Shown here: positions 34,096-52,923 of the stretch, one piece after another
Numbering within the stretch: position 1 is the first letter of the stretch
How the letters are laid out: each line of letters starts with the position of its first letter
From: an uncultured Bacteroidales bacterium
GTDB lineage: Bacteria; Bacteroidota; Bacteroidia; Bacteroidales; UBA12077
Reading direction: 5' to 3'
Assembly (NCBI GenBank): GCA_964585385.1
Contig: CAZPDP010000011.1
Location: 1,086 to 65,085 of the forward strand
DNA: 64,000 nt
Translations under genes and position numbers: made by a program
Notes under the pieces: generated by a model
Seen by the model: the letters and a program-made list of their open reading frames with translations, nothing else
Told to the model about the DNA's origin: nothing
Database searches by the model: none

Positions 34096-34226
34096 ATAAG
34101 AGGTTGTCTCGAAAGATGCTTTAATGTATTCCACGCAAAGTTTAATTTGACGAACCATAATACCTTAGTGTTTCGTCAGCATTCTTTGCGTGAACACATT
34201 TTTCTACTTTTGAGACAGTCTCTTAT
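34096..34226. repeat. 131-bp nested inverted-repeat element (MITE/REP-like)
   Basis: Arms ATAAGAGGTTGTCTCGAAAG and CTTTTGAGACAGTCTCTTAT; inner stems CACGCAAAG/CTTTGCGTG and TGACGAA/TTCGTCA. Confidence 0.7.
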
Positions 34227-34244
34227 AGACCTTGTTGCTATTGT

Positions 34245-35501: not shown

Positions 35502-35521
35502 TTCTTCAATATTTTAACAAT

Positions 35522-36139: not shown

Positions 36140-36158
36140 ACAGCAAAATTATTTTGTA

Positions 36159-36806
36159 CTAGTTTTCTTCAATTAATTTTCTGTTTCTGTATCGCTGAAC
36201 CCAAATAATGATTCCAACTGTAATCAGGGCCATTGGTGGAAGGATGAACAATCCGTTATTCTCATACCCAACAGTATAGGCACCTTCGGGTATTACCTGT
36301 TTTCCCCAGATAGTACCTGAACCAAAAAGTTCTCTTACAAATCCTACTATTACCAGGATCACACCATAACCTGCTGCGTTTCCAATACCATCCAGGAAAG
36401 CTGGCCATGGCTTGTTACCCAGAGCGAAGGCTTCCAGTCTACCCATGATGATACAATTTGTAATAATCAAACCCACAAATACCGATAACTGCTTGCTAAC
36501 GTCGTAAGCAAAAGCAGCCAGAAACTCATCCACAAGAATCACCAATGATGCAATAACTGTCAACTGCACGATAATCCTGATTCGTGGAGGGATCATATTT
36601 CGCAGTACCGAAATGACCACATTCGAAACAGCCATTACAAATACAACTGAAAGAGCCATAACTACGGAAGGTTCCAACTTGACCGTAATCGCGAGGGCTG
36701 AACAAATACCCAGGACCTGCACTGTGATAGGATTGGAATCATCCAGTGGCTCTTTTAATAATTTCATATTTTTAGCCGACAATAAAGGCTCTCTATCTTG
36801 ACTCAT
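36159..36806 (-). CDS. nqrD: Na+-NQR subunit D
   Basis: 'QVLGICSALA', 'GLIITNCIIMGR'. Confidence 0.96.
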   Translation of the reverse strand: MSQDREPLLSAKNMKLLKEPLDDSNPITVQVLGICSALAITVKLEPSVVMALSVVFVMAVSNVVISVLRNMIPPRIRIIVQLTVIASLVILVDEFLAAFAYDVSKQLSVFVGLIITNCIIMGRLEAFALGNKPWPAFLDGIGNAAGYGVILVIVGFVRELFGSGTIWGKQVIPEGAYTVGYENNGLFILPPMALITVGIIIWVQRYRNRKLIEEN

Positions 36807-36811
36807 AATAA

Positions 36812-37516
36812 TTAATTTTTTCGCATTTTCTTAATATAAGGCAAATAATCGCCTATAACACCTCTAAGCATTTTATCCACCCCATTGCTGGTGATTGTAC
36901 CACCGGAAATACCATCCACCTGGTGTTTGGCATCGGGTGGAATATCTTTTTTTACAACACTTACTGAAACAAAATTCCCGGATTCATCAAATATTTTTTT
37001 GCCAATGAATTGTTTCTGGAAAGGTCTGTTGGCAATTTCTGCTCCCAATCCGGGTGTTTCACTTTGATGACTGAAATTTGTTCCATATATTGTGTTAAAA
37101 TCGTCTTCAATTGCTACATAGCCCCAAATAGGCCCCCAAAGACCTTTTCCTCTTACAGGGAGCACATAAATTTTTTGTCCTTCTTTGGTTCCTATAAACA
37201 CCGGTAAATTCCTTTCTTCCAGTGATTTTTCCAATTCTTTCTCAAGCTCCACAGGAAAGGCCTCTACATCTTCTTTTACCTCTCCTTCATGATCTACCAC
37301 ATAGCTATCGGTTATATACTCATCATATTTTTCAATGGCATTATCCTTTGTACTTTCAATATTGAGCGAAAGCAGGATATTTTGCTTTTTATTCCTTTCA
37401 ATGTTCTTTTTCTGCATGGGCTGTAACTGCATAGCCACGATTGAAAGAATGGCAGCAACAGAAATAACCATTATGAACGAGAATGTAAATATGTATGTAT
37501 TGCTATAATGCTTCAT
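36812..37516 (-). CDS. nqrC: Na+-NQR subunit C
   Basis: 'GKGLWGPIWG', 'ETPGLGAEI', FMN attachment site 'VDGISGGTITS'. Confidence 0.96.
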   Translation of the reverse strand: MKHYSNTYIFTFSFIMVISVAAILSIVAMQLQPMQKKNIERNKKQNILLSLNIESTKDNAIEKYDEYITDSYVVDHEGEVKEDVEAFPVELEKELEKSLEERNLPVFIGTKEGQKIYVLPVRGKGLWGPIWGYVAIEDDFNTIYGTNFSHQSETPGLGAEIANRPFQKQFIGKKIFDESGNFVSVSVVKKDIPPDAKHQVDGISGGTITSNGVDKMLRGVIGDYLPYIKKMRKN

Positions 37517-37530
37517 ATCTGTATATTTTA

Positions 37531-38694
37531 TTAACTTGCTTTTACTTTAGCTCTTTTCAGGCGTTTCTTAATATTACTTTCCACCACATAGTGATCGATA
37601 AGTGGAGCAAACACGTTCATCAGAAGAATAGCCAGCATAACTCCCTCGGGATAGGCAGGATTTACAACACGGATAAGAATAGCAAGGAAGCCGATTAGAA
37701 ATCCGTAAATGTATTTCCCTCTTCTTGTTTGAGCTGCAGATACAGGGTCTGTAGCCATAAATACTGCCCCAAATGCAAATCCACCCATTATAAGATGCTC
37801 CCATGCAGGAATTTCCATAAAGGGATTAACAGCAAATGCATTTAAAATCAACCCCATAACTAGTCCCCCGATAAAAGTAGAAAGCATAATTCTCCAGCTA
37901 CCCACGCCGGTCAGGAGTAATATTACTGCACCTATCAGAACTGCCAGAGCAGATGTCTCACCAATGGACCCCGGTATAAATCCGAAAAACATATCCGAAG
38001 CAGAGGGGATACTCTCAACACTTCCTTCTGCTGCCAGACCTAGTGGTGTTGCCCCTGAAAAACCATCAACAATTCCTTCTCCATTCATTAATCCGTGGGT
38101 CCAGACCTGGTTCCCTGACATATAAGCCGGGTAAGCAAAAAACAGGAATGCCCTTGCTGTAAGTGCGGGATTCAAAATGTTCATCCCTGTTCCACCAAAT
38201 ACCTCTTTACCAAAAATCACAGCAAAAGCAGTAGCTGTAGCCACCATCCAAAGGGGCACATCTACGGGAAGAACCAGGGGAATTAACATGCCGGACACAA
38301 GAAATCCTTCATTTACCTCATGTCCTCTTATTTCTGCAAATAGAAACTCGATGGCCAGACCTGTAACATAAGAAACTATTATTATCGGCAGTACAAGTTT
38401 AAACCCTTCCCAGAAAGTCTGCAACAACGCCCCTTCCTGCCCGGTAGCCAGAAAATGCTGATGTCCTGTATTCCACATTCCAAAAAGAAGGGCAGGAATC
38501 AAAGAAATGACTACCAGACTCATAGTCCTTTTCATATCAATGGCATCTCTTATGTGAGCCCCTTGTGTTGTGGTCTTATTGGGTACAAAAAGAAAGGTTT
38601 CAAATGCCTCAAAAGATCTTGAGAACTTCTCGTACTTTCCCCCTTTCTCAAAATGGGGCTTAATATTATCGACTATTTTACGTAAAGACTTCAT
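37531..38694 (-). CDS. nqrB: Na+-NQR subunit B
   Basis: 'KEVFGGTG', FMN site 'SGATPL', 'GSIGETS', 'FMATDPVS'. Confidence 0.96.
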   Translation of the reverse strand: MKSLRKIVDNIKPHFEKGGKYEKFSRSFEAFETFLFVPNKTTTQGAHIRDAIDMKRTMSLVVISLIPALLFGMWNTGHQHFLATGQEGALLQTFWEGFKLVLPIIIVSYVTGLAIEFLFAEIRGHEVNEGFLVSGMLIPLVLPVDVPLWMVATATAFAVIFGKEVFGGTGMNILNPALTARAFLFFAYPAYMSGNQVWTHGLMNGEGIVDGFSGATPLGLAAEGSVESIPSASDMFFGFIPGSIGETSALAVLIGAVILLLTGVGSWRIMLSTFIGGLVMGLILNAFAVNPFMEIPAWEHLIMGGFAFGAVFMATDPVSAAQTRRGKYIYGFLIGFLAILIRVVNPAYPEGVMLAILLMNVFAPLIDHYVVESNIKKRLKRAKVKAS

Positions 38695-38714
38695 TCGTAA
38701 TATTTTTTATTTGA

Positions 38715-40067
38715 TTAACTCATTTCCTCCATCATCAGATTCAGTCCTTTTCGGATATATGACTGAACAGGAATTTTGGAGGTACAAACAAATTCGGGTA
38801 AAGCAAAATCCTCCTCATCCACTTCATAAATACCCAACTTCTCCATAAGCTCTATATCTTCAATCATAATTGCTTTTATCAACTGTACCGGATAAATATC
38901 CATAGGCAGCACATTTTCATATTCTCCACTCATAACATAAGCTCTTTCTCCACCTTTAAGGTTTGTATCTATCCTGTACTTCCTGTTTGGCTGTAGCCAG
39001 GAGAAAAATGTTCTTGATGTGCTGAATTTATGAAATCCCGGCTTTGCCCATCCCAGCATTTCGTAGTAGTTCCCTTCAGGAATAACGGTAACCTGGTTAT
39101 CGAAGAAACCTGTATACCCTTCGCTTGATATCTTTTTGCCAGTTAAAACATTACCACTTATATATCGTAAATTTCCCTCTGCAACATTGTCTTTGATGAG
39201 GTTTTCTATACTTGCTCCCCGAAGGATACGGTAATATTGGGGGCGTTTGACTTCAGAGCCGGTTAAAGCAATGATTTTTGAAGCGTCGTACTTCCCATGA
39301 TCAAATAATCTTCCAATCGTTAAAATATCCTGTGGATATATATACCAAACTTTTTCCCCTGCATTTATCGGATCAATTTTATTAATTTGAATCCCTATAT
39401 TACCTGCCGGATGAGGTCCAACAAAGTGGTTGAGCTGTACTCCTCTTGCATTGCTAAAAACTTTTGAAATAGGATATTTAGCATTCACATTCAAATGAAT
39501 AGTCCCCGAGGTAAGTTTTTTAAGTGCATCCAGGCCTTTTTGGAAATTCTGCTCTTCTCCTTTAACAATCATATCGTTATCAGGAGCCAAAGGAGATGAA
39601 TCGAACGCAGAAATAAAAATAGCCTTCGGATCATCTTCAGGATTAGCTACTACGGAATAGGGCCTTTGTCTGATGAATGACCATAACCCGGATTTAACGA
39701 GTTTATCTGCAATTTCTTCTCTTGATAAGTCATTCGGATCAGCCTTTCCAAAGTCTTCGTATTCGATATTGGAGTCTGCTTCGATGACGACTTCCAATAT
39801 TTTTCTTCTTTCCCCTCTCGTTACTTCAATAATTTTACCGCTCACAGGCGACGGGATCTGCGAATGCGGAATAAGTTTATTATAGAACAGAGGAGTTCCT
39901 GATTTTACTCTATCTCCTTCCTTTTTCAGAAGCTTGGTTCTCATCCATTTGAAATCAATGGGCTTAACACCATAAAATCTCGCCGGTTCGGCTTTGCTAA
40001 TGACCTTTTCAGCCTCACCTTTCAGAGGAATATCCAGCCCTTTTTTTATCTTAATAACCTTAGACAT
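38715..40067 (-). CDS. nqrA: Na+-NQR subunit A
   Basis: 'IKIKKGLDIPLKG', 'PSPVSG', 'GPHPAGN', 'EEDFALPEFVCTSKI'. Confidence 0.96.
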   Translation of the reverse strand: MSKVIKIKKGLDIPLKGEAEKVISKAEPARFYGVKPIDFKWMRTKLLKKEGDRVKSGTPLFYNKLIPHSQIPSPVSGKIIEVTRGERRKILEVVIEADSNIEYEDFGKADPNDLSREEIADKLVKSGLWSFIRQRPYSVVANPEDDPKAIFISAFDSSPLAPDNDMIVKGEEQNFQKGLDALKKLTSGTIHLNVNAKYPISKVFSNARGVQLNHFVGPHPAGNIGIQINKIDPINAGEKVWYIYPQDILTIGRLFDHGKYDASKIIALTGSEVKRPQYYRILRGASIENLIKDNVAEGNLRYISGNVLTGKKISSEGYTGFFDNQVTVIPEGNYYEMLGWAKPGFHKFSTSRTFFSWLQPNRKYRIDTNLKGGERAYVMSGEYENVLPMDIYPVQLIKAIMIEDIELMEKLGIYEVDEEDFALPEFVCTSKIPVQSYIRKGLNLMMEEMS

Positions 40068-40204: not shown

Positions 40205-40894
40205 TTATTTCAATAACGTCATTTCTTTCAGAGCCGATTTATCTTTAATAATTAACACACCCTTTTTTTCCTCTATTATATCATTTTTAATGAAGTGCTG
40301 CAATGTTCTTACCACACTCATGGTCGACATTCCGCTAAATTCAGCCAGGTCTTTTCGTGAAAGATTAAGATTGAAACGAATATTCTGATAGACGTTATCA
40401 GACAGATGCAAAAGGCTATCGGCCAACCTGCCATGTGTTTGTTTCAGATTCAGGCTAATCAGTTTATTTCTAATCTGATCCATTTCTTCATTAAGGGTTT
40501 GGATGACCGAAACAGCAAAATTGTTGTTATCTCTGATTATCTGTTGAATAACTTTCTTATCAATGGCACAAACTCTTGAATCTGAAACAGCTGCCACTGA
40601 AAAATGAAACTTCTCTGTATAAAAAAGGGAGGATAGCCCGATTAATAAACCCTTAGGATATATACTGTATATTGTGGTACTGTTGTCTTCATTTTCCCTG
40701 TAGACCTTTACAATACCTTCTTTAACATAAAGGATATGAGTAAGAAATGTACCCTGCTTTTCAATGGTTTCGCCTTTCTTGTAGCTTACCTGAACCTTAC
40801 TTTCACTTGTCATAATCAATTCATTCTGATTAAGCTCATGAAAGCAAGAGGATTTAAAGTCGCAATCTGTACAGGTAGTTCGAATTTCTGCCAT
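40205..40894 (-). CDS. Crp/Fnr family regulator with an FNR-like N-terminal Cys cluster
   Basis: CTDCDFKSSC (C-x2-C-x5-C), cNMP-binding-fold region, C-terminal HTH 'LSRKDLAEFSGMSTMSVVRTL'. ATG start at 40894; the ORF track starts at 40906. Confidence 0.88.
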   Translation of the reverse strand: MAEIRTTCTDCDFKSSCFHELNQNELIMTSESKVQVSYKKGETIEKQGTFLTHILYVKEGIVKVYRENEDNSTTIYSIYPKGLLIGLSSLFYTEKFHFSVAAVSDSRVCAIDKKVIQQIIRDNNNFAVSVIQTLNEEMDQIRNKLISLNLKQTHGRLADSLLHLSDNVYQNIRFNLNLSRKDLAEFSGMSTMSVVRTLQHFIKNDIIEEKKGVLIIKDKSALKEMTLLK

Positions 40895-41053
40895 TTCATT
40901 CAACAACTTTGGGTGTACAAATATAAATAAATCTATTTTTTTATCGACTTATTTATATATTTATTTTTCCATATTCATATATTTTTATAGCTCCCCGCGG
41001 CCCATTTTTATTTTTTAGAATATATCTATTTTTTATGGTTGGAATTCAATTAG

Positions 41054-41108: not shown

Positions 41109-41603
41109 ATGAAATTTAAAAATATATTCGTTTCCTTCTTAATCGGTTTGGGGTTCTGGATTTTACTTAATAATACTTTTGACCCGCTGATTCTTGCAAT
41201 TGGAGCAGGTTTATCCCTTTTACTTTCGCTAATATTTTGCGCAAGATGTGATGTATTTTCTGAGTTAAAACTCACTCCAATAGCATTATTATACACGATT
41301 ATCTATATTCTGATTTTTCTTTTTGAACTTGTTAAGTCCAACCTGGATGTTGCACGTCGTGTTCTAACCCCTTCACTACCTATCAACCCAGGCATTGTAG
41401 AAGTAAAGACCAAGCTGAAATCAAAAATGGGCAGACTGATTCTGGCTAATTCCATAACACTTACCCCTGGTACATTAACAATAGATATAAAAGAAGACAC
41501 CCTATACATTCACTGGATTGACGTTCAGACAGAAGATATTAAGGGTGCTACCGAGCAGATTGTAAGAAAATTTGAAAAATATTTAGAAAAAATATATGGT
41601 TAA
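41109..41603 (+). CDS. mbxA: Mrp-type subunit MnhE / MbxA
   Basis: 'PINPGIVEVKTKL', 'LANSITLTPGTLT', 'LYIHWID'. Confidence 0.85.
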   Translation: MKFKNIFVSFLIGLGFWILLNNTFDPLILAIGAGLSLLLSLIFCARCDVFSELKLTPIALLYTIIYILIFLFELVKSNLDVARRVLTPSLPINPGIVEVKTKLKSKMGRLILANSITLTPGTLTIDIKEDTLYIHWIDVQTEDIKGATEQIVRKFEKYLEKIYG

Positions 41604-41856
41604 CACAATACTATCGATAGCTCTGGGAATAATGCTTTTATCCATTATTCTCTCTTTGATAAGGTTCATAAAAGGACCTTGTTATACCGACCGGGTCATT
41701 GCTTTTGATGTAATGACTATCTCCTCCCTGGCCATCATTGCAGGCATTGCTTATCTGAGCGGAAGAATTATTTACCTGGATATTGCTATGGTTTACGGAA
41801 TTTTAAGTTTCCTGGGAGTATTAATTGTTGCACGATATCTGGAAAAAGGACTATAA
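41596..41856 (+). CDS. mbxB: MnhF / MbxB
   Basis: 'RFIKGPCYTDRVIAFD', three TM helices, 'ARYLE'. Confidence 0.85.
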   Translation: MVNTILSIALGIMLLSIILSLIRFIKGPCYTDRVIAFDVMTISSLAIIAGIAYLSGRIIYLDIAMVYGILSFLGVLIVARYLEKGL

Positions 41857-41859
41857 ATT

Positions 41860-42222
41860 ATGAATACATTAGCTGTTATCGGATCTTTTATTACCCTGGC
41901 CGGTTCAATATTCCTCCTGCTGGGTTCTATTGGACTTCTGAGGATGCCGGATTGTTTCAACCGAATCCAGGCTGGTACAAAAGCATCTACTCTCGGAACC
42001 ATTTTATCTTTTACCGGTATTTTACTTATCGTTCCCGGTTGGTGGGGAAAATTACTGATATTGATTATTTCAGTAATGATAACCAACCCGGTTTCTTCTC
42101 ATGTTTTGGCAAGGGCGTCGCATTATATAAGGGTACCCCTCACAAAAGCACTGTTAGTGGATAAATACCAGGAGGACGAGCAGTATATTTCTGTTGATGA
42201 TCAAAAAAATAAAAAAGAATGA
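41860..42222 (+). CDS. mbxC: MnhG / MbxC
   Basis: 'GLLRMPDCFNRIQAGTKASTLG', 'TNPVSSHVLARA'. Confidence 0.85.
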   Translation: MNTLAVIGSFITLAGSIFLLLGSIGLLRMPDCFNRIQAGTKASTLGTILSFTGILLIVPGWWGKLLILIISVMITNPVSSHVLARASHYIRVPLTKALLVDKYQEDEQYISVDDQKNKKE

Positions 42223-42473
42223 TACTAAAAATTATTGCCTTAGTCATTGCTTTAGCCATCATTCTAATGGCCATTATAGCAGTTCAGAACAAAAAACTTA
42301 TCGTCGCCATCATCGCAGCTGGTGTGGTGAGTTTGTTTGCCTCGGTCTTCTATCTTCTCATGTCAGCACCTGACGTAGCCATGACAGAGGCAGCCATTGG
42401 CAGTGGATTATCCACAATAATCTTTTTCTATGTATTGAATAAAATCAAAAAAGACAGACTGGACAATGTTTAA
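42219..42473 (+). CDS. mbxD: DUF4040 / MbxD (MrpA C-terminal fragment equivalent)
   Basis: 'APDVAMTEAAIGSG'. Confidence 0.8.
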   Translation: MILKIIALVIALAIILMAIIAVQNKKLIVAIIAAGVVSLFASVFYLLMSAPDVAMTEAAIGSGLSTIIFFYVLNKIKKDRLDNV

Positions 42474-43170
42474 GAATATATTTGTATTTGTTGTACTCAT
42501 TGGGCTGGCTTTCATTCTTTCTAAATCATACGTGATTTTGCAGCCTGAAGAAGGTTTAAATGAAGTCGCCACCCGCTATGCTGAAAAAGGACCTGAAGAA
42601 GTCGGGGCAGCTAACCTGGTAACAGCAGTAATTGTTACATATCGGGGTTTAGATACCCTGGGTGAAGTAACCATATTGTTCATTACAGCAGCTATTATCG
42701 GTTTTTTCCTCAAGGTAAAGCTTGAAGATGAGATAGAATCAAGAAGTTTAAGAAAGACAAGTGAAATTCTTGAGACCGCTGCAAAAGTAATTACACCTGT
42801 AATTTTTCTTTTTGGTATTTATGTATTTATTAATGGTCATCTTACCCCGGGAGGCGGTTTTCAGGGAGGCGCCATCATTGCATCCGGACTGGTATTGATG
42901 TTGCTTGCCAATCCTAAAAAAGAAGTCAATCATAAGATCATATCCTTTATTGAATCCATATCCGGTTTTTCATTCATCATACTTGGAATCCTGGGAATCT
43001 TCCTGGCAGGCGGATTCCTGGATAATAATTTCATCAGCCTCGGTAAATTTGGGACGCTCCTTAGCGCAGGCGCAATTCCGGTAATTTACATTTTTGTCGG
43101 ATTAAAGGTTGGATCCGAATTGTCAGGCATTGTAAGTAACCTACAGGAAACACAGAAAGAAAAAATATAA
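42466..43170 (+). CDS. MnhB / MbxE-F type subunit
   Basis: 'ANLVTAVIVTYRGLDTLGEV', 'GHLTPGGGFQGG'. Confidence 0.85.
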   Translation: MFKNIFVFVVLIGLAFILSKSYVILQPEEGLNEVATRYAEKGPEEVGAANLVTAVIVTYRGLDTLGEVTILFITAAIIGFFLKVKLEDEIESRSLRKTSEILETAAKVITPVIFLFGIYVFINGHLTPGGGFQGGAIIASGLVLMLLANPKKEVNHKIISFIESISGFSFIILGILGIFLAGGFLDNNFISLGKFGTLLSAGAIPVIYIFVGLKVGSELSGIVSNLQETQKEKI

Positions 43171-43541
43171 TGGAACAAATCAGTTTAGCACATATTGGCT
43201 TTGTTTTAGGGATTGCAATTATACTAATCGGCCTTTGGGCCATTCTGACAAAGAAAAACATTATCAAAATCATTGTAGGTTTTTCTTTGTTCGACACAGG
43301 AACACATATAGTAATGGTATCCATTGGTTATGTTCAGGGTAAAACAGCTCCGATACTGGATAAAGCCGTTAACCTTAAAAACGCCGCACAGGAAATTGTC
43401 GATCCTGTTCCCCAGGCGCTGGTACTCACAGCAATTGTCATCGGACTGGGTATTACTGCACTTATGCTTGCTTATGCTTTAAGACTTTATCAAAGAAGAA
43501 AAACATTGGAAATTAAAAAATACAGCGATCTAAAATGGTAG
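43170..43541 (+). CDS. mbxG: MnhC / MbxG (NuoK-like)
   Basis: 'KNIIKIIVG', 'DPVPQALVLTAIVIG'. Confidence 0.85.
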   Translation: MEQISLAHIGFVLGIAIILIGLWAILTKKNIIKIIVGFSLFDTGTHIVMVSIGYVQGKTAPILDKAVNLKNAAQEIVDPVPQALVLTAIVIGLGITALMLAYALRLYQRRKTLEIKKYSDLKW

Positions 43542-46500
43542 AACCTATTTATATTGTCGGATCAGGCCTTGGTATTGCTTTTCTGCTTGGTATCATAAAA
43601 AAAGCAGGTAAAAATACTTCAGGTATCCTAATGCTTTTGACCATTGCTTTTATGACCTTTGTATCGGTTCAGTGGCTCTGGTCTGTCATATTTGCGGGTA
43701 ATGCTCCCCATTACACTTTCACAGCAGGATTCAAACCTCCTTTCTCGATTAACCTATTAATGGGAAGGCATGAAGCTATTCTTACCACTATGATTAATTT
43801 TTTGGGACTCCTTGGGGGATTATACCTCTGGGATAAATTCAAAAAAGAAGGAGTCAATTCCATGATTGTTTTCCTGGTGATAATTATGGGACTGAATGTT
43901 ATCATAATGACCCGTGATATTTTCAACCTGTTTGTATTTCTTGAAGTAGCGAGTATAGGTGTTGCAGGGTTGGTGGTTCTGGAAAGAAATACCAAATCGC
44001 TCTCAGCAGGATTTAAATATATGATTGCAACCAGTATAATTGCTGGTATCCTGCTTCTGGGAATCATTTTCTCATATAAACTAGCCGGTTCACTTAATAT
44101 AGATGATTTGGTAAAATCCAACCTCTGGTTCGCTAAAGGAGGCACAACCACTGTCTTTCTGATTCTCATAGCCGTTATATTTGAATTAAAACCCTTTCCT
44201 GCTAATGGCTGGGGACTCGACCTTTATGAAGGAGCAAATCCCGGTTTAGCTGCCCTGATCTCGGGTGGAATTGCAACAGCTTCTTTATTCATACTTTATA
44301 AATTAATGCATCTTGGAGGAGAAAACTGGTATATTCCTATTGCAACCACAGGCATGATAACTTTTATTGGCTCCAACCTGCTGGGTATTAATCAAAAAAA
44401 CAGCACCCGTTTGCTTGGTTATTCATCAGTGGGGCAGATTGGTCTTATCATGATGATTCTTGGCTTTTCCAGCATGCTGGGCAACAAATTTGAATTCATA
44501 GCCTTTGGAATTCTCATAAGTCACTTTCTTGCTAAAGCAGGCTTATTCTGGATTGCCGGCTTACTCAAAAACACAAAAATTCAAAACTGGGGTGTAATAA
44601 GAAACAGGCCATTCATGCTTTTCCTGATGGGCACCTTTATCCTGGCCCTTATCGGAATGCCACCTTTCCCATCATTCTTTGGCAAATGGGAATTCATTAT
44701 GAAACTGGCTGATAATAACATGCTCGTTTGGGTTATTGGAATATTAACAGGCTCGGTACTTGAAGCAGTTTACCTGTTTCGCTGGTTTGGATATGCAGCA
44801 AAACTCGAACCAGAAGAAGAAAACAAAATTTCGTTTCCCATACACAAAGTTATACCCATACTTTTTGCAGGCCTTGGGCTTTATATTTTCAGTTATTTCA
44901 GTGCAGAATGGATTGGCTTAAGTTTTTCCGCTGCTTTTTACATTCCGTTAATTTTGATAATTATTCTCTTTGTACTGGATTTTCTGCCTGTTTATATCAA
45001 AAATACCATTGGTATAGCAGGACTGGGATACTATACCTACACCCTGTTTTTTAATGATTTGATACCCGGAGGCGATATTCTGCGTATCGTGTTTGCCATC
45101 CTATTCCTGGCCGGTGGACTTATCATGCTTATTCCCGGGTATACCCAAAAAGGCAAACGAAAAGGGTTTTATCCTTTGGTAATTCTTATGTTTGCAGGAT
45201 TAGGCGGTTTAATTCAGGCAGAAAATACCTTGCAGTTTTTCTTTGCCTGGGAAATTATGACCATCGCCTCCTACTTCCTAATAATGCGCGGAAAACAGGC
45301 CATGAAAGCCTCTCTGAATTACATCCTTTTCTCAATTAGCGGGGCTTATTTCATGCTTATGGGCTTTGCTATGGCCTTTCAGGCACATGAAAGTTTCACA
45401 CTCGAAATCCTCAACAATACAACAGGCCTCACATCCTGGATATTTCTGCTGGTAGCCATTGGTTTTATGTTTAAAATTGCCACCATTGGAATTCACATCT
45501 GGCTTCCCGGCTCTTATACTGAAGCCGAAGATGATGTGACACCCATGATATCTGCAATACTCATCAAATCAGGAGTTTTTGGTTTTCTGATATTTATGAT
45601 TTCGGGCGGGAATTTTGAACTGGCAAATATTAACATCCCCTATGTTTTAGGGTGGTTAGGCGCAATAAGTGCCGTAATCGGAAATATGCTGGCTATTTAC
45701 CAGGAAGATGCGAAAAAACTGATAGCCTATTCCAGTATCGGTGTTATGGGATATATACTCTTTGCCATTTCCATGATGACCGGTTTGGGATGGCTTACAG
45801 CCGTGACCTACGGAATGCTTCATTTCTTGTATAAAGGCTTGTTGTTCCTGGCTGTTGCCGGTGTCATATACCGAACCAGAACCCGTAAATTCTATGAGAT
45901 GGGTGGTCTGATAAAGAAAATGCCGATTTCGTTTATTGCGGTATTAATCGGTATCATTACACTTGCGGGTATGCCCCCACTAGCAGGTTTTGCAGGAAAA
46001 TGGCTGTTCTACAACGCAGTGATTTTAAAAGGCTGGTATATACAGGGAACACTGGTATTCTTTGCAGGAATTGTCGCATTTTTATATTGTTTCAAACTCA
46101 TTCACAACATATTTCTTGGCCCCATTAAAGATGAACACCGCAGAATAAAAGAAACATCAGTATGGTGGCTTATCCCCCAGGTTTTGCTTATCATCGTGAT
46201 TATGGCATTTTCGGTACAACCCAGAATCTTTATGGAACCGGTCGGAGCCTACCTGGCCAACTATTTCCCGGGTGAAACGCTGCAATGGCAAGGAACCAAA
46301 GCCTCCACAAGTCTCGGATACTGGAATGCAACTCAAATCATGTATATAGTCGGCGGTCTGTTTGCAGTCCTTTTTGGAGCCTTGTTCTTTTTAAGCAGAA
46401 AAGCACAAAAAGTGAAACAATTCAATATGGTCTACCAGGCTGAAAGACCTTTCAGGCCAGAAACCACGCATGTGGCTTACAATATGTTTGCACATTACAA

Positions 46501-46681
46501 TAAAGCGCTTGGAATATTCAGTGCGCCTCGTGTAACAAATTTCTGGAACGGGTTTTCAAACTTAATCCATGATACCGGAAATCATATTCGTCAGCTATAT
46601 TCGGGTAATGGGCAAGCTTATGCACTGCATATCGTCCTGTATTTTATTGTATTTTATGTATTACTAAACGGAGGATTCTAA
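43535..46681 (+). CDS. Fused double antiporter-like subunit (MnhD/NuoN-like twice; MbxH-MbxH')
   Basis: 1048 aa with two proton-translocating modules: 'DIFNLFVFLEVAS...KPFPANGW' and 'TLQFFFAWEIMT...KIATIGIHIWLP'. Confidence 0.85.
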   Translation: MVEPIYIVGSGLGIAFLLGIIKKAGKNTSGILMLLTIAFMTFVSVQWLWSVIFAGNAPHYTFTAGFKPPFSINLLMGRHEAILTTMINFLGLLGGLYLWDKFKKEGVNSMIVFLVIIMGLNVIIMTRDIFNLFVFLEVASIGVAGLVVLERNTKSLSAGFKYMIATSIIAGILLLGIIFSYKLAGSLNIDDLVKSNLWFAKGGTTTVFLILIAVIFELKPFPANGWGLDLYEGANPGLAALISGGIATASLFILYKLMHLGGENWYIPIATTGMITFIGSNLLGINQKNSTRLLGYSSVGQIGLIMMILGFSSMLGNKFEFIAFGILISHFLAKAGLFWIAGLLKNTKIQNWGVIRNRPFMLFLMGTFILALIGMPPFPSFFGKWEFIMKLADNNMLVWVIGILTGSVLEAVYLFRWFGYAAKLEPEEENKISFPIHKVIPILFAGLGLYIFSYFSAEWIGLSFSAAFYIPLILIIILFVLDFLPVYIKNTIGIAGLGYYTYTLFFNDLIPGGDILRIVFAILFLAGGLIMLIPGYTQKGKRKGFYPLVILMFAGLGGLIQAENTLQFFFAWEIMTIASYFLIMRGKQAMKASLNYILFSISGAYFMLMGFAMAFQAHESFTLEILNNTTGLTSWIFLLVAIGFMFKIATIGIHIWLPGSYTEAEDDVTPMISAILIKSGVFGFLIFMISGGNFELANINIPYVLGWLGAISAVIGNMLAIYQEDAKKLIAYSSIGVMGYILFAISMMTGLGWLTAVTYGMLHFLYKGLLFLAVAGVIYRTRTRKFYEMGGLIKKMPISFIAVLIGIITLAGMPPLAGFAGKWLFYNAVILKGWYIQGTLVFFAGIVAFLYCFKLIHNIFLGPIKDEHRRIKETSVWWLIPQVLLIIVIMAFSVQPRIFMEPVGAYLANYFPGETLQWQGTKASTSLGYWNATQIMYIVGGLFAVLFGALFFLSRKAQKVKQFNMVYQAERPFRPETTHVAYNMFAHYNKALGIFSAPRVTNFWNGFSNLIHDTGNHIRQLYSGNGQAYALHIVLYFIVFYVLLNGGF

Positions 46682-46691
46682 ATATCGAACT

Positions 46692-47585
46692 ATGAAGATA
46701 CTGTACGTTTTATTAGGATTATTCATCATCATCAATTACGGATTGCTTAAAACAGGACTAATCCGGAGAATTACAGCGCGTGTAGGAAAACGTATAGGCG
46801 TACCCATATATCAGCCTTATATTGACCTTATCAAGACTTATGGCATTCGATCCCAGGTAACGCATGGCGTGATGTTCTACCTGGGTCCTGTTTTCAGACT
46901 GGCGGGCGGGATCGGAATATTCCTGTTCATGCCATTGATATATGGCTCTGATATGTTTAGTAATTTTTCATTCGCCGGTGACCTGATACTCATCCTGTAC
47001 TTCATCTTTTTTGGTATGCTGGGTATGGCGCTTGGCGCTGGTGAAGGCGGGCACCCCTACTCTATTGTCGGTATCAGCAGAGGATTGTCTCAATTCACAA
47101 CAGTTGAGATTCCCCTCACCCTGGCTATCATTGCCATAGCAGTTCAGTATCAAAGCTTATCAATAACCGAGATTGTAGCGGCCCAGCAGGGAGGTATAGA
47201 AAACTGGACCCTCGTAACCAATCCACTTGCTACTATTGCAGCCTTCTTTTCTTTCCTGGGAATGATGATGTATTCTCCCTTTAATGTGGTGAATGCTCCA
47301 CAGGAAAATCCTATTGGCCCCCCAACTGAATATCAGTCTACATTCCTCGGAATGCTCCAAACCAACAGGGCCATCCTTAGTGTTATGGAATCAATATTAT
47401 TTGTAAATCTTTTTTATGGTGGCGCAACAAACTGGATTGAACTTGTTGTAAAAGCCTTTATAGTCTATTTCCCTGCAATATTCATCGGTACAGTTTTCCC
47501 CAGATTCAGGGTTGATCAGTCTATTAAATGGTTTATTCTTATACCTACATTGCTGGGATTATTAGCTATTTTGTTTGCAGCTTAA
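46692..47585 (+). CDS. mbxM: NuoH-like membrane anchor / MbxM
   Basis: 'RRITARVGKRIGVPIYQPYIDLIK', 'PFNVVNAPQE', 'FPRFRVDQ'. Confidence 0.82.
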   Translation: MKILYVLLGLFIIINYGLLKTGLIRRITARVGKRIGVPIYQPYIDLIKTYGIRSQVTHGVMFYLGPVFRLAGGIGIFLFMPLIYGSDMFSNFSFAGDLILILYFIFFGMLGMALGAGEGGHPYSIVGISRGLSQFTTVEIPLTLAIIAIAVQYQSLSITEIVAAQQGGIENWTLVTNPLATIAAFFSFLGMMMYSPFNVVNAPQENPIGPPTEYQSTFLGMLQTNRAILSVMESILFVNLFYGGATNWIELVVKAFIVYFPAIFIGTVFPRFRVDQSIKWFILIPTLLGLLAILFAA

Positions 47586-47598
47586 AGTTAAATGAATT

Positions 47599-48270
47599 AT
47601 GAGTGATAACAACAAAAAAGACAAATTCTTAAAGCCTGAAAATGAGAAAAGATGGGTAACCAGCCCGGATGGAGAGAGATTTGAAGTGGATCCCATGCAG
47701 GATTATTTCTGTGATGCCCGGCCTAAAGAACACCGGCCGGCATACAGCAAAGTCGTTGAGAAATTCCTGAACTGGGCAAGAGCGGAATCCTTATGGGTAT
47801 TAGGATTTGGAACCGGTTGCGGTAGCATTGAAATTTATCCGCTTATGACACCCCGGTTTGATGCTTACCGCTTTGGCGTTCAGCAGAGACCCACTCCAAG
47901 ACAATCCAACGTACTCATTATTTCAGGATACCTGAGTGTAAAAACATTGAAAAGGGCAATCAGAACGTATGAACAGATGCAAAACCCCAAATTCGTTATG
48001 GGTTTGGGAAGTTGCACCATCAACGGCGGAATGTACTGGGACAGCTACAACACAATCAACCGGCTGGATTACTACATGCCTGTCGATGTTTACGTTGCAG
48101 GTTGTATGCCCAGGCCAGAAGCCTTACTCGCTGGTTTTGAACAGTTAAAAAAACGCATAAAAGAAGGAAGAGGCGAAGGAGCCAATGACTACGCAAGGAA
48201 CTTCGACTGGTACAAAGGCAACCAGAAAAAAATTATTAAAGACTGGAATATGCCGGATTACAACTGGTAA
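47599..48270 (+). CDS. mbxJ: NuoB-like Fe-S subunit / MbxJ
   Basis: 'FGTGCGSIE', 'GSCTINGGMYWDSYN', 'AGCMPRPEA'; three cluster Cys, no tandem CC. Confidence 0.85.
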   Translation: MSDNNKKDKFLKPENEKRWVTSPDGERFEVDPMQDYFCDARPKEHRPAYSKVVEKFLNWARAESLWVLGFGTGCGSIEIYPLMTPRFDAYRFGVQQRPTPRQSNVLIISGYLSVKTLKRAIRTYEQMQNPKFVMGLGSCTINGGMYWDSYNTINRLDYYMPVDVYVAGCMPRPEALLAGFEQLKKRIKEGRGEGANDYARNFDWYKGNQKKIIKDWNMPDYNW

Positions 48271-48328
48271 TTATAGAATTTAGAATTATGATTGAAAGCC
48301 AAAAGTTCGTAATTAAAAAAGAAGTAGT

Positions 48329-48865
48329 ATGGACAACGAAATAATTAAAAACATAAAAAATCACTTCGAAATCATAGATATAACAGAACAAAGAGATAAC
48401 CTGACTTTTGTGAGTGTTAAAAAAGATCAGACTGTGCCTTTGGTAACTTATTTGCGGGATTACGAAGGTTTTTCGCATTTTGTTCTGCTCACTGCTGTTG
48501 ACTGGATTGAAGAGGATAAATTTCAGCTAACGTATATTCTCAACCACCCTGAGAAAAAATTAGATATTGGAGTCAGAACAGGAATACCCCGTGAAAATTC
48601 AGTAATGGAATCAGCTCACCATTTATGGGCAGATATCGCCACGCATCAGCGCGAACTGAAGGAAAACTTCGGAATTGATTTTCCGGGTAGCCCGAGAGTT
48701 GATGAGGAGTTTCTCCTGGAGGGATGGGATAACACACCCCCCATGCGAAGAGAATTTGATACAAAAAAGTATTCAGAAGAAACATATTTTCCCCGACCGG
48801 GACGTGAAACGAACGATCCGGCTGAACATATGAAAAAAAAGCTATATCCTGATGAAGAAAAATAA
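48329..48865 (+). CDS. mbxK: NuoC-like subunit / MbxK
   Basis: 'LLTAVDW', 'HQRELKENFGIDFPGSP', 'LEGWDNTPPMRR'. Confidence 0.85.
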   Translation: MDNEIIKNIKNHFEIIDITEQRDNLTFVSVKKDQTVPLVTYLRDYEGFSHFVLLTAVDWIEEDKFQLTYILNHPEKKLDIGVRTGIPRENSVMESAHHLWADIATHQRELKENFGIDFPGSPRVDEEFLLEGWDNTPPMRREFDTKKYSEETYFPRPGRETNDPAEHMKKKLYPDEEK

Positions 48866-50045
48866 ACTGTTCCACTGGAATTCGGACAGAAGCGCTTTCC
48901 CGGATGTTGGAGAAGACGGCAAACTTAATATTGACCTGGATTCACAAAAATATGTCAAGGTCTGGCACGGCCCCAATCACCCCGGTGTAACCGGTAATAT
49001 GTCGCTTGAACTCACCATAAGCGGCGATGAAGTACTTGAGGCCAAAACACACGTGGGATATCTTCACCGGGGATTCGAAAAGCTCTATGAAAGAAGAAGC
49101 TACATTCAGTGTTTTCCAACTGTTGTTCGAATGTGTGTTCCCGAACCCGATTCCAACGAATACAACCTGGCTGCAGGCATTGAAGAACTGGCCGGGCTGG
49201 AAATTCCTGAAGCAGCCAAATGGCACAGAACCCTGGCGCTTGAAATGTCCCGGTTGCAGTCGTTGTTGCGAATAATGCCCGCTCAGGCCGGTACTACAGG
49301 ACTCGGACTTGGTGTACAATGGGGTGTTTACCTTCGAGATCTCATCCTCGACAGATTTGAAGAATTAACAGGTGGCAGAATATATCATATGTACATGATT
49401 CCCGGTGGTGTCAGGGGATTAATACCGGAAGGTTTTAAAGATCGGCTTGAAGAAAATCTCAAAGAAATAGATGAGTTTATTATCAATATCAAAAAATTGG
49501 TCCTTGATAATTCTGTGTTCAAAAAGCGTACGGTAGGAAGAGGAGTTATTCCTGGAGACTGGATTGACAAATATAGTGTGGTAGGACCCAATGCACGGGC
49601 TGCAGGAGTAAACAGGGATATCCGTATCGACTATCCTTATCTGAAGTACGATGAACTGGACATTGAACCATTCACAGCAGAGGATTCCGATATTTATACC
49701 CGCACCTACACCCGCTGGATGGATATTCAGACCACTGTGGACCTGTTGAGACAAATTATGGACAAGCTTCCGGAAAAGGGAGAAATAAGAACAAAAACAC
49801 CTAACGTTCTGCACTGGGAGATTCCCAAGGGTGAAACTTACATCCGGTCCGAATCCTCAAGAGGAGAATATGGATTCTACATGGTTTCAGACGGCAGCAA
49901 GTACCCCAGACGTATTAACCTGAAAGGTCCGAGCTATTCTCATGCAGTAGCCCTGCTTGAAAAAATACTGATAAATGCCAATATAGCCGACATAGGGGCG
50001 ATTATGGTTTCATTGGCAACGTGCCCGCCGGAGATTGAGCGGTGA
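48852..50045 (+). CDS. mbxL: NuoD-like large subunit / MbxL; lacks complete NiFe-binding CxxC motifs
   Basis: 'HGPNHPGVTG', 'GYLHRGFEK'. The hydrogenase L1 and L2 motifs are reduced to RMCVPE and TCPPE. Confidence 0.85.
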   Translation: MKKNKLFHWNSDRSAFPDVGEDGKLNIDLDSQKYVKVWHGPNHPGVTGNMSLELTISGDEVLEAKTHVGYLHRGFEKLYERRSYIQCFPTVVRMCVPEPDSNEYNLAAGIEELAGLEIPEAAKWHRTLALEMSRLQSLLRIMPAQAGTTGLGLGVQWGVYLRDLILDRFEELTGGRIYHMYMIPGGVRGLIPEGFKDRLEENLKEIDEFIINIKKLVLDNSVFKKRTVGRGVIPGDWIDKYSVVGPNARAAGVNRDIRIDYPYLKYDELDIEPFTAEDSDIYTRTYTRWMDIQTTVDLLRQIMDKLPEKGEIRTKTPNVLHWEIPKGETYIRSESSRGEYGFYMVSDGSKYPRRINLKGPSYSHAVALLEKILINANIADIGAIMVSLATCPPEIER

Positions 50046-50050
50046 TATGT

Positions 50051-50139
50051 GTTTAAGGTTTAAGATTAAAAAAAGAGAATGTAAGTTGTCAGATAACAGA
50101 CACAAGATACCGGATACAAGATACATGATGCCTGATAAC
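50051..50139. repeat. Upstream heptamer arrays: (GTTTAAG)2 and about 7 x NGATACN
   Basis: AGATAAC AGACACA AGATACC GGATACA AGATACA TGATGCC TGATAAC at 50091-50139. Confidence 0.8.
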
Positions 50140-50215
50140 AGGATATCGAAGCATCGAAATGTTAGAATAGGATAATAAAAAGATAAAGCTTTCATTACAA
50201 TACTAAACTAATCAT

Positions 50216-50593
50216 ATGAGCTATAAGAAACTGGAAATTTGGAGTCTTGCCAGAGAACTGGTTGTAGACATACATAAAATGACTTTAAATGAACTTCCGA
50301 AATTTGAAATGTATGAAACAGCTTCCCAGATAAGAAGGTCTATTAAATCTGTTAAAGCCAATATAGTCGAAGGTTATGGAAGAAGAGAATACAAACAGGA
50401 ATTCATCAGATTTTTGACATTTGCAATAGCATCAAATGATGAAACGATTGATCATTTAGAAACTTTATATGAAACTGAATCTTTAAAAAATAAAAAGCTA
50501 TATGATGAAATACACCAGAAGTTAAATCTACTGAGTAAAAAATTGTTAAAGTTTCATGAAGTAGTAAATATCAATCACAAAACCCATAGATAA
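50216..50593 (+). CDS. Four-helix-bundle protein (23S rRNA IVS protein / TIGR02436-like family)
   Basis: '[21 protein letters not shown]', '[30 protein letters not shown]', '[15 protein letters not shown]'. Confidence 0.88.
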
Positions 50594-50668
50594 AATCCGA
50601 TATCCGGTATCTGGTATCCCGTATCTGGTATCCGAAATCAATATTCGAAATTAAACTTCAAACTTTTA
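50592..50668. repeat. Downstream heptamer arrays, reverse complement of the upstream arrays
   Basis: GATATCC GGTATCT GGTATCC CGTATCT GGTATCC at 50599-50633; TAAACTTCAAAC at 50652-50663. Confidence 0.8.
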
Positions 50669-50679
50669 ACGAAAATACT

Positions 50680-52455
50680 ATGAACCTAAAAGACATACTA
50701 TCCCCCTTCTCAGCCTGGAAAAACTTATTGAAGGAACCGGTTACTGTTAAGGATCCAATCAATGAGAGACCTGGTGCACCAAGATACAGGGGATTTCACA
50801 AGAACGACATTGAAAAATGCATTGGTTGCGGAACCTGTGAAGAAATCTGTGAGAATGAGGCTATTGACCTTGTTGAAGTAGCCAGCATAGAAACTACCGA
50901 TGGTGACAGTGGACTCAGACCAAGAGTTGATTATGGACGATGCTGCTGGTGTGCTCTTTGCGTGGATGTTTGCCCCACCGGCTCACTCACCATGTCCAAT
51001 GAATATATATGGATTGATGAAAATCCTGATGTATTTCGTTATACTCCAGGCATCGAAAGCAAAGAATGGGACAACAACCAACTGGGATGGACCAAACCGG
51101 AGTACCCGTTGTATGAACCTGAGCGTGTTGATATGGTAGAGATGGACGCCGATGAACGCAAAAGTTCATTCCTTGAAATAGTCAGAGGTTATTCACGGGA
51201 ACAGGCTGAAAAAGAAGCTGACCGGTGCATTCAGTGCGGTATATGTGTTGCTACATGTCCTGCTCACATGGATATTCCGGGATATATAAAATCCGTTCGT
51301 GAAGGGGATATGGAAAAAGGACTTCATCTGCTTTATGATACCAACCCGCTTCCGGAAATCTGCGGGAGAGTTTGTACGCACAGATGTGAAACGGTTTGTG
51401 CTGTCGGACATGAAGGCGATCCGCTGGCTATTCGCTGGCTCAAGAGGTACATTGCGGATGCTGTACCTTTCGAGCAATACAAGGAAATTCTCGGCGTAAC
51501 AGATATTGAAGAAAACGGCAAAAAAGTGGGCATCATCGGAGCTGGTCCGGCAGGACTGGCAACTGCATATTACCTGAGAATAAAAGGCTTTGACGTCACT
51601 ATTTACGAAGCCAAATCCAAAGGCGGAGGCATGACCATGTATGGTATTCCCAAATACAGGCTCCCGCAAAATATGCTTGATTCTGAAATCGGTTTCATCG
51701 AAGATATTGGAGTGAACATTCATTACGAAACAAGAGTTGGTGAAGACATCAGTTTTGAAGAAATCTACGATAAGTTCGATGCAGTATTCGTAGGTATTGG
51801 ATTCCAACACCCCTATACACTTGCCATTGAAGGTGAAGACCTGAAAGGTTCTCTGCAGGCGATTGATTTCCTGGACAAGATTAATAAGAGCGAAAAGGTA
51901 GACATTGGAAAGAAAACAGCCATTATCGGCGGGGGCAATGTGGCCATGGATGCCGCCAGGGTGGCAAGAAGACTTGATACGGATGTAACAGTCCTGTACC
52001 GGCGAAGGGTACAAGATATGCCGGCAGACGAAGAAGAAATCGAAGGAGCTTACGATGAAGGAGTTAAAATTGAACCTCAAACAATACCGGTTAAGATTAT
52101 TCCGGATGAAAAAGGAAACGTGAAGGCCATTCAATACCTCCGGGCAGAACTGGTACAACAGGAGGAGGGAAAAAGACCCAGGCCTGTACCCATTGAAGGA
52201 AGCGAAGAAACACTGGAAGTGGACAGTGTGATCGGTGCCATCGGACAGGAAGCCAAATACACCTTCCTGCCGGAAAAATTCGAGAAACAACTTGAACTAA
52301 AACGCGGAAGAATGGTTGTAGATAAAAACAACAAAACTACAATCCATAAAATATATGCAGGTGGAGACGCTGTCAACAGAACGGCAGATGCTATCAGTGC
52401 AATTGCAGATGGACACCGGGCAGCAAATGGAATTGAAAAAATGCTATTAAAATAA
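50680..52455 (+). CDS. NuoI-like 2x[4Fe-4S] subunit (MbxN) fused to a GltD/SudA-like FAD-NAD(P)H oxidoreductase
   Basis: [11 protein letters not shown] and [12 protein letters not shown]; then [50 protein letters not shown]. Confidence 0.88.
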
Positions 52456-52461
52456 AAGCTT

Positions 52462-52923
52462 ATGAATGAAAATTTTAGCAATCCAAGGGAAGTTATTGAC
52501 TTCGCCATTGAGCGCGAACAAGAAGCACACGATTTCTATCTGAACCTTAAAGAACATGTTAAATCCAAGGAACTACAGGATACATTAAACCAATTCGCCA
52601 TGGAAGAATTGGGTCATAAAAAGAAACTCCAGAGCATTATAGAGAAAACGGAAGAATATGGCTTTACCAAAGATGAGGTTACACATCTAAAAATCGGTGA
52701 TTATCTTGTTGACAAGACACCTACTGCTGACATGTCTTACCAGGATGTACTGATCATATCCATGAAAAAAGAAAAGAAATCCTATCTTCTTTACACCGAT
52801 CTGGCTCAAAGAGTAAACAATCCTGAGCTGAAAAAGATATTCAGTAACCTGGCCCAGGAAGAAGCGAGCCATAAATTAAGGTTTGAATTGGAATATGACG
52901 AACATATTCTTTCCGACAATTAA
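52462..52923 (+). CDS. Ferritin-like / rubrerythrin-family di-iron protein
   Basis: 'AIEREQEAHDFY', 'EELGH', 'EKKSYLLY', 'EEASH'; no rubredoxin domain. Confidence 0.82.
   Translation: MNENFSNPREVIDFAIEREQEAHDFYLNLKEHVKSKELQDTLNQFAMEELGHKKKLQSIIEKTEEYGFTKDEVTHLKIGDYLVDKTPTADMSYQDVLIISMKKEKKSYLLYTDLAQRVNNPELKKIFSNLAQEEASHKLRFELEYDEHILSDN

Follow-up and report, generated by a model that had tools for sequence, protein, structure and literature searches.

An MBS/Mbx-type operon with a predicted NADPH flavoprotein module in an uncultured Bacteroidales bacterium

MBS is a structural 'missing link' between hydrogenases and complex I, and to our knowledge it has been studied only in hyperthermophilic archaea. 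What kind of enzyme, then, is encoded by an operon with the MBS/Mbx gene order in a mesophilic member of the Bacteroidota, and with which partners does it exchange electrons? The operon in question lies at 41109-52455 (+) of a stretch of 64,000 nucleotides (hereafter, the window) from contig CAZPDP010000011.1 of an uncultured Bacteroidales bacterium (GenBank assembly GCA_964585385.1). It encodes a membrane-bound, predicted ion-translocating oxidoreductase that belongs, within the complex I superfamily, to the MBS/Mbx branch, and its N subunit is fused to a flavoprotein domain of the NfnB/GltD type. The most likely activity, which we hold with about even confidence, is an NADPH-driven and possibly reversible reduction of sulfane sulfur, the presumed substrate, at a cluster with three Cys ligands, coupled to the translocation of Na+ or H+.

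Assignment of the operon to the MBS/Mbx branch

The open reading frame (ORF) listing and Pfam matches define a single tightly packed operon with the MBS/Mbx order A-B-C-D-E-G-(H+H' fused)-M-J-K-L-N (Table 1), and all 13 modules of the Pyrococcus furiosus type, comprising an Mrp-type arm and a NuoH/B/C/D/I-like arm, are found within it. Because several neighbouring genes overlap by 1-14 nt, the MBS-like genes are regarded as one unit. The predicted membrane arm of the Mrp type is complete (A, B, C, D, E, G and the fused H-H') and is accompanied by the M anchor and a J-K-L-N peripheral arm. An earlier note on this DNA, made from the sequence letters alone, had claimed the same gene order, and in this it was right, with H and H' residing in one ORF (NCBIfam PRK08377 covers aa 12-445, and PRK08668 covers aa 514-1042); it missed, however, an inserted cassette at the L-N junction and the rubrerythrin-like gene that closes the operon.

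Comparison with solved structures gives a consistent assignment, as P. furiosus MBS (6U8Y) is the best match for each of the six subunits tested (L, J, M, E, H' and the N domain). L scores 260 bits with 6U8Y_L versus 185 with Nqo4, 122 with MbhL and 86 with HycE, and J scores 208 bits with 6U8Y_J versus about 130 with the PSST subunit of complex I and 96 with MbhJ. The corresponding scores are 159 bits with 6U8Y_E versus 65 with MBH chain F for E, and 90 bits with 6U8Y_N versus 58 with the best NuoI for aa 6-123 of N, an MbsN-like two-cluster domain. For M (150 bits with 6U8Y_M) and H' (aa 518-1040 of the fused ORF, 207 bits with 6U8Y_X), the MBS chain is the sole PDB match below 1e-25 and 1e-40, respectively.

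The residues around the former active site point in the same direction. L carries RMCVPE at aa 93-98 and TCPPE at aa 390-394, so that, as the earlier note had stated, each NiFe motif retains a single Cys; the pattern at the four NiFe positions is C-E-C-E, with two of the four Cys kept. In the alignment, RMCVPEPD is matched by RICVPEPD of MbsL and TCPPEIER by NCPPDIDR, and the positions of H38 and Y87 in Nqo4 are T47 and V96 in window L, with Thr and Val likewise in MbsL. By these criteria window L has neither a NiFe site nor the quinone-binding His/Tyr pair. The cluster Cys of J number exactly three, again as claimed, and are located in GCGSIE, GSCTINGG and GCMPRPE; FGTGCGSIE aligns with FCTGCGGIE of MbsJ, and the equivalents of C28, C93 and C123 are kept, whereas that of the non-ligand C25 is Gly. 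The proximal [4Fe-4S] cluster of window J is thus predicted to be ligated by only three Cys. In P. furiosus, the proximal [4Fe-4S] of MbsJ is held by the three Cys C28, C93 and C123, and polysulfide has been proposed to be reduced at its free iron, while MbsJ C25 and MbsL C85/C385 are dispensable and MBS has neither the quinone ligands H38/Y87 of Nqo4 nor the Glu of hydrogenases (PMC7684303).

With window L as the query, 1.8 billion 50%-identity representatives were searched, and 128 full-length sequences together with MbsL, Nqo4, Escherichia coli NuoCD and HycE were scored at the four NiFe positions. The closest matches of L are all C-[DE]-C-[DE], 19 sequences including HycE are CCCC, and the others are NuoD-like. 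A neighbour-joining tree of 128 sequences, built on 363 columns with 200 bootstraps and including no labelled Ehr, Fpo or Ech sequences, separates window L and MbsL from Nqo4, NuoCD and HycE in 97.5% of the replicates, and the smallest clade that contains both is purely C[DE]C[DE] in 87.5%. At 50% identity the family of window L makes up a cluster of its own, and the only named members of the nearest such clusters are Zestosphaera and a Heimdallarchaeota metagenome-assembled genome (MAG). The earlier suggestion of an Mbx/MBS type rather than complex I or a hydrogenase is borne out by this grouping of L with MbsL, not with NuoD or HycE, a comparison that the note itself had put forward as a way to refute it, and by the best matches of the six subunits to 6U8Y. 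As for Ehr complexes, which are NuoB/C/D/H/I/L-like and have neither the NiFe Cys nor Mrp E/F/G, the Mrp set and the retained Cys of the window argue, by reasoning, against membership.

The complex shares with P. furiosus MBS its 13-module composition, gene order, L clade, the L motifs R-x-C-V-P-E-P-D and C-P-P-[DE]-I-[DE]-R, the three proximal-cluster Cys and the absence of quinone and NiFe ligands. It differs in that the free-standing MbsN takes electrons from ferredoxin, whereas window N carries an additional NfnB-type NADPH flavoprotein of about 450 aa; in that H-H' is one polypeptide and J has no equivalent of MbsJ C25; in the sequence of L (36% identical to MbsL) and in three of the five charged-axis residues of MbsM; and in its mesophilic bacterial host and the rubrerythrin-like gene added to the operon. 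Complex I and the group 4 [NiFe] hydrogenases (MBH, Hyc/FHL and Ech) have a homologous Q-module (B, C, D, I and H) and antiporter-like subunits, and a three-loop coupling architecture is presumably common to them and the window complex. Compared with these enzymes, the window complex is without NuoEFG, the tandem CC of the B subunit, the His/Tyr quinone ligands and the CxxC NiFe motifs, and it possesses a full Mrp E/F/G/B set.

The N fusion and the proposed electron path

The final subunit of the conserved order had been taken for a plain NuoI, which turned out to be incorrect: it is a protein of 591 aa in which the MbsN-like domain is followed by an FAD/NADPH domain of the NfnB/GltD type. In the PDB comparison, aa 147-589 score 328 bits with Thermotoga maritima NfnB, 326 with P. 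furiosus NfnI-L and 224 with GltD, and NCBIfam PRK13984 ('putative oxidoreductase') matches the fusion over its full length with 741 bits. An AlphaFold (AF2) model of the fusion, built with 50 homologues (pLDDT 82.6, pTM 0.78), resembles, over its C-terminal 450 aa, NADP(H)-bound NfnI-L (5JCA_L) with a Foldseek TM score of 0.90, a root-mean-square deviation of 2.1 Å and 41% identity. Motifs in the flavoprotein domain predict two [4Fe-4S] clusters and sites for FAD and NADPH. Invariant in the 50 homologues are the eight N-domain Cys, the NfnB-type ligands C183/186/189/193 and C228/232/236-E237/C240, the FAD motif GxGPxG, GGGxxA and Y440-R-R-R443. The fold, both [4Fe-4S] ligand sets including the Cys-Glu pair, and the FAD and NADPH motifs are shared with NfnB/NfnI-L (4YLF_B, 5JCA_L) and GltD. 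Unlike in Nfn, the window domain is tethered to a di-cluster subunit, and no NfnA-like (FAD/[2Fe-2S]) partner gene was found among the scanned ORFs of the window (those of at least 110 aa, searched against NCBIfam or Pfam).

The fusion is a putative module for electron input or output of the complex. Because N is joined to an NfnB-type NADPH flavoprotein, NADP(H) rather than free ferredoxin is the likely redox partner, and since the YRRR and Rossmann motifs are shared with NADPH-specific NfnB, NADPH is the likely donor. Flavin-based bifurcation is neither implied nor excluded, because the NfnB-type domain is here tethered to a di-cluster subunit of the complex I type.

The predicted cofactor sites lie in line, from NADPH/FAD through two NfnB-type and two N-type clusters to the three-Cys proximal [4Fe-4S] and an MBS-like pocket. 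NADPH would give a hydride to the FAD of the NfnB/GltD-type domain, and single electrons would then pass via the two NfnB-type [4Fe-4S] clusters and the two N clusters to the proximal cluster of J. Within the L/J/M chamber, the open iron of this cluster would hand them on to a hydrophobic carrier of sulfane sulfur, either a polysulfide or a persulfide, which would thereby be reduced. Sulfane-sulfur reduction of that kind has been proposed for P. furiosus MBS (PMC7684303). The redox step would drive the movement of H+ or Na+ via H-H' and the Mrp-like distal module. As little driving force is available between NADPH and polysulfide, the complex may run near equilibrium, and in some hosts it might be reversed, with the ion gradient driving NADP+ reduction; reverse operation would be possible in sulfur oxidisers. 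The exposed, oxidation-sensitive cluster would probably be shielded by the rubrerythrin-like protein. More tentatively, and with rather less than even confidence, we propose that the fused family as a whole represents a distinct and widespread respiratory enzyme, namely a reversible, Na+/H+-coupled oxidoreductase between NADP(H) and sulfane sulfur or another hydrophobic acceptor.

Several observations weigh against sulfane-sulfur reduction. No sulfur-metabolism genes (psr, rhodanese, nsr or sqr) were found in the window by the NCBIfam and Pfam scans. The family occurs in aerobic Rhodobacteraceae and iron oxidisers as well as in sulfur oxidisers, a range that fits dedicated sulfur respiration poorly. 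An estimate from standard potentials puts the step from NADPH to polysulfide at about 50-100 mV, which is marginal for ion pumping, and of the five acidic residues in the charged axis of MbsM only E203 and E211 are kept, with Phe, Ser and Asn in place of E104, E193 and D196, respectively. The MBX of the Riftia symbiont is listed with unknown function and direction (PMC11636981), and our literature search found no report of the purification or assay of a complex of the fused type.

The original 'Mbx' model is the main, though rather unlikely, alternative. It describes an ion-coupled, Rnf-like ferredoxin:NADP+ oxidoreductase, in which ferredoxin would be oxidised, NADP+ would be reduced at the GltD/NfnB domain and ions would be exported; in its version for autotrophs, the ion gradient and NADPH would yield reduced ferredoxin. 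This is the role assigned in PMC4758237 and in a Mesotoga preprint (10.1101/322537), and it is in keeping with the two NfnB [4Fe-4S] clusters, which in Nfn form the ferredoxin-reducing branch and to which the window domain is homologous. The co-expression of the Mrp-Mbx complex of the Riftia symbiont with the ferredoxin-dependent reductive tricarboxylic acid (rTCA) cycle (PMC11636981) and the broad host range, including non-sulfur organisms, which suits general redox balancing, also speak for it. Yet both substrates would sit at the distal end of the chain, and to judge from the architecture of MBS, MBH and complex I (PMC7684303) the J/L/M coupling site could be bypassed; as electrons need not pass that site, the membrane arm would have no obvious drive. 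The strict conservation of the three-Cys cluster and of the VPEPD / PPEIER pocket points instead to chemistry there, and P. furiosus MBX, to which a ferredoxin:NADP+ role had earlier been given, proved to be a polysulfide reductase (PMC7684303).

If chemistry does take place in the L/J/M chamber, a quinone could be its substrate, and the complex would then be an NAD(P)H:menaquinone oxidoreductase, an analogue of complex I with an NfnB-type flavoprotein in place of NuoEFG. The opening of the MBS chamber is as wide as that of complex I (PMC7684303), the family is found in respiring, quinone-containing bacteria, and the larger driving force would account for a membrane arm with two pumps. We nevertheless regard this as improbable given the Thr and Val of window L at the quinone head-group ligands of Nqo4, the GCG of J instead of the tandem CC of NuoB/PSST, the grouping of L with MbsL, not with NuoD, and a Na+-NQR that is already encoded next door. 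An energy-converting [NiFe] hydrogenase (Mbh/Ech/Hyc type) or a canonical complex I, as automated names would have it, deserves hardly any weight. The best Pfam and NCBIfam names are indeed those of complex I subunits, and the fold family is shared with group 4 hydrogenases; however, L has C-E-C-E in place of the CCCC of HycE and 18 other sequences, scores far below its MbsL match with MbhL and HycE, and is separated from Nqo4, NuoCD and HycE in the tree. No hyp or nuoEFG genes, as the earlier note had stated, and no nuoA, nuoJ or nuoL set were found among the scanned window ORFs. Both readings are rejected on motifs, tree and gene context. A stand-alone Mrp antiporter is likewise rejected, since the Mrp genes are packed and overlapping, with a complete conserved redox arm, in 80 loci.

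Distribution, conservation and published relatives

These loci come from a survey in which one genome per GTDB species was scanned. Homologues of L with 61-71% identity are found in Bacteroidales, Salinivirga, Ichthyobacteriaceae and Prolixibacteraceae, and those with about 52-62% in Cloacimonadota, Spirochaetes, Calditrichaceae and Thermoanaerobaculia. In Proteobacteria (about 57-62%), they occur in Burkholderiales, Gallionellaceae, Rhodocyclales, Tepidiphilus, Thiodiazotropha, Thioalkalivibrio and Chromatiaceae, and also in the Rhodobacteraceae isolates Aliiruegeria sabulilitoris and Tropicimonas isoalkanivorans; matches of 44-50% include Melioribacter, Sulfurovum, further Bacteroidales and Gammaproteobacteria, and a few archaea. 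The rarity in Bacteroidota that the earlier note implied is thus contradicted, as the operon is common across bacteria of the Fibrobacteres-Chlorobi-Bacteroidetes (FCB) group, Spirochaetes, Proteobacteria and others. Cultured carriers exist: Saccharicrinis, Tropicimonas and Aliiruegeria isolates are among the matches, and Melioribacter roseus, for which the match is a MAG, is a cultured species, as is T. maritima. Some Bacteroidales MAGs carry a second, more distant operon type (L 45-49%) in which H and H' are apparently separate genes, which points to at least two subfamilies of MBS-like operon within Bacteroidales.

Gene order is constant throughout the 80 loci. Of the 66 loci in which the state of N could be judged, 59 have the fusion to the NfnB-type domain, and the exceptions are Sulfurovum, Nitratifractor, two archaea and a Synergistota MAG; a rubrerythrin-like homologue follows N in 17 of the 80 (tblastn). 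The three Cys motifs of J are nearly invariant, whereas the two vestigial Cys of L are often replaced by Ala, Ser or Tyr, such that the L of many Proteobacteria, Spirochaetes and Cloacimonadota has RIAVPEPD and TYPPEIER with unchanged J motifs. The reduced Cys motif of L is therefore an unreliable marker of the family and the J motif a reliable one. The variability of the L Cys matches their published dispensability in mutagenesis, and points to the three-Cys J cluster as the conserved functional core; no feature of the family is more conserved than this cluster and the pocket motifs VPEPD / PPEIER. Mislabelling by automated pipelines, which the earlier note predicted, is widespread: homologues are named 'NADH-quinone oxidoreductase subunit D', 'glutamate synthase small chain' or 'FAD-dependent oxidoreductase', and the best NCBIfam models for the operon subunits carry complex I names.

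Operons of this kind have been described before. Degli Esposti (2015; PMC4758237) assigned ferredoxin:NADP+ activity to 'mbx-like' operons of Thermotoga and proteobacteria that have a gltD-related flavoprotein instead of NuoI and often a rubrerythrin gene at their end, and the Mesotoga preprint made the same assignment. The T. maritima mbx-like operon has a gltD-type subunit (PMC4758237), its likeness to the window operon resting here on the published description, and mbxA of this organism is up 4.4-fold with S0 (PMC9431562). In the Riftia symbiont, the 'putative Mrp-Mbx complex' is co-expressed with hydrogenases and sulfur-globule proteins in addition to the rTCA cycle (PMC11636981). With the bacterial 'mbx-like' operons the window operon shares the NuoI-type and gltD-related flavoprotein, the terminal rubrerythrin and the vestigial NiFe Cys in the NuoD homologue; it differs in its setting in an uncultured Bacteroidales-like genome, its IVP cassette and its FNR-like upstream regulator. 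In the literature searched, the phrase 'mbx-like' occurs in one paper and 'Mbx' together with 'NfnB' in none, and the genome papers of Caldithrix and Melioribacter do not mention the complex. The cluster of six genes in PMC4053972 is a different one, of a Hyf-like kind. The window operon is thus a Bacteroidota representative of a family already described but biochemically uncharacterised, and is neither rare nor first seen here.

The cassette at the L-N junction contains a gene (50216-50593) for a 125-aa four-helix bundle of the 23S rRNA IVP family (PF05635 / TIGR02436), which is probably not a subunit of the MBS complex. It is flanked by imperfect, heptamer-type inverted repeats (50090-50137 versus 50601-50639, 78-81% complementary), and the predicted RNA closes the whole IVP ORF in a long stem (z = -4.4) that resembles 23S rRNA intervening sequences. 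A relative at 90% identity (locus L083) has two cassettes, at 7995-8390 and 10302-10676 between J-K and L-N, with different flank repeats, whereas relatives at 65-71% identity have no cassette in the operon. The cassettes look like recent, repeated insertions of an intervening-sequence-like element into operon spacers, and the one in the window could cause processing of the mRNA between L and N.

Genomic setting and implications

The rubrerythrin-like gene is the last of the operon and starts 7 nt after N. A scan after it found no sigma-70 promoter and no intrinsic terminator; the end of the operon is set by the next gene, which is convergent.

Table 1. Features of the MBS/Mbx-type operon and the adjacent regulator gene, with coordinates in the window.
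Feature	Coordinates	Strand	Evidence
Crp/Fnr-family regulator, divergent from the operon	40205-40906	-	Pfam cNMP_binding + HTH_Crp_2
MbsA / MnhE-type subunit, distal Mrp module	41109-41603	+	PF01899 MNHE, E 1e-41
MbsB / MrpF-type subunit	41596-41856	+	PF04066, E 4e-15
MbsC / MnhG-type subunit	41860-42222	+	PF03334, E 5e-24
MbsD, MbhD/DUF4040-type subunit	42219-42473	+	PF13244 MbhD, E 4e-20
MbsE, MbhE + MnhB domains	42466-43170	+	PF20501 + PF04039
MbsG, NuoK/MnhC-type	43170-43541	+	PF00420, E 4e-23
Fused MbsH-MbsH', 1048 aa, two antiporter-like, predicted ion-translocating subunits	43535-46681	+	two Proton_antipo_M domains
MbsM, NuoH-like membrane anchor of the peripheral arm	46692-47585	+	PF00146
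MbsJ, NuoB-like, predicted carrier of the proximal [4Fe-4S] with three Cys ligands only	47599-48270	+	6U8Y_J match
MbsK, NuoC-like	48329-48865	+	PF00329, E 9e-23
MbsL, NuoD / NiFe-large-subunit-like, one Cys per former NiFe motif	48852-50045	+	6U8Y_L match, motifs, tree
Inserted cassette with PF05635 gene (50216-50593) between L and N	50090-50639	+	Pfam, inverted repeats
N fusion, 591 aa, MbsN-like 2x[4Fe-4S] domain (aa ~1-125) + NfnB/GltD-type domain (aa ~147-589)	50680-52455	+	Fer4 families + Fer4_20 + Pyr_redox_2
Rubrerythrin-like di-iron four-helix-bundle protein, without rubredoxin domain	52462-52923	+	PF02915, E 4e-15

In the upstream regulator the Cys residues follow the pattern C12-x2-C15-x5-C21 ... 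C112, spaced as in E. coli FNR; the NCBIfam models that fit the protein best are Fnr and FnrL, with neither match reaching the cut-off. A Crp-type gene is also found upstream of the operon, on the opposite strand, in Bacteroidales relatives. The protein is a candidate O2-responsive regulator of the operon, and its presence suggests anaerobic expression. The link is weakened by a search for FNR boxes (TTGAT-N4-ATCAA, up to two mismatches), in which 84 matches were found versus 82.6 expected, no excess over chance; near the operon there is a single match, which lies across its start codon, and there is none in the 200-bp spacer. Directly upstream, at 33025-40067 (-), lies a complete nqrA-F set with apbE, and the FNR-like gene is the only one between nqr and the mbs-like operon. 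The adjacent Na+-NQR suggests sodium-based membrane energetics.

The rest of the window is ordinary Bacteroidota chromosome, with a trp operon, pnp, prfA and a type III glutamine synthetase. Two full-length trpB genes are present, at 8537-9748 (-) and 60574-61779 (+), one within the trpEGDCFBA operon and the other alone. Paralogues of the PorE family (type IX secretion system, OmpA-like) lie within 8 kb of each other at 5782-7767 (-) and 14091-16064 (+), and only the second reaches the NCBIfam cut-off. An ORF of 669 aa at 177-2186 (-) has no Pfam or NCBIfam match, and near it, at 4226-5695, an adenylate/guanylate cyclase is fused to an HD domain.

A close architectural copy of MBS with its three-Cys cluster is thus present in mesophilic Bacteroidota and in many other bacterial phyla, where the MBS-like complex appears to be wired to NADPH and goes under the name of complex I or glutamate synthase in nearly all annotations. 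If the proposed activity is true, the complex I superfamily would have, in the NfnB-type flavoprotein, a third type of module for electron input besides NuoEFG and free ferredoxin. In fermenters the complex would serve to discharge NADPH electrons, and sulfur-oxidising autotrophs would run it in reverse to obtain NADPH. An ion-pumping link between NADPH and sulfane sulfur (or ferredoxin) would, in that case, be lacking from the metabolic reconstructions made for communities of anoxic sediment, gut-like environments and symbionts.

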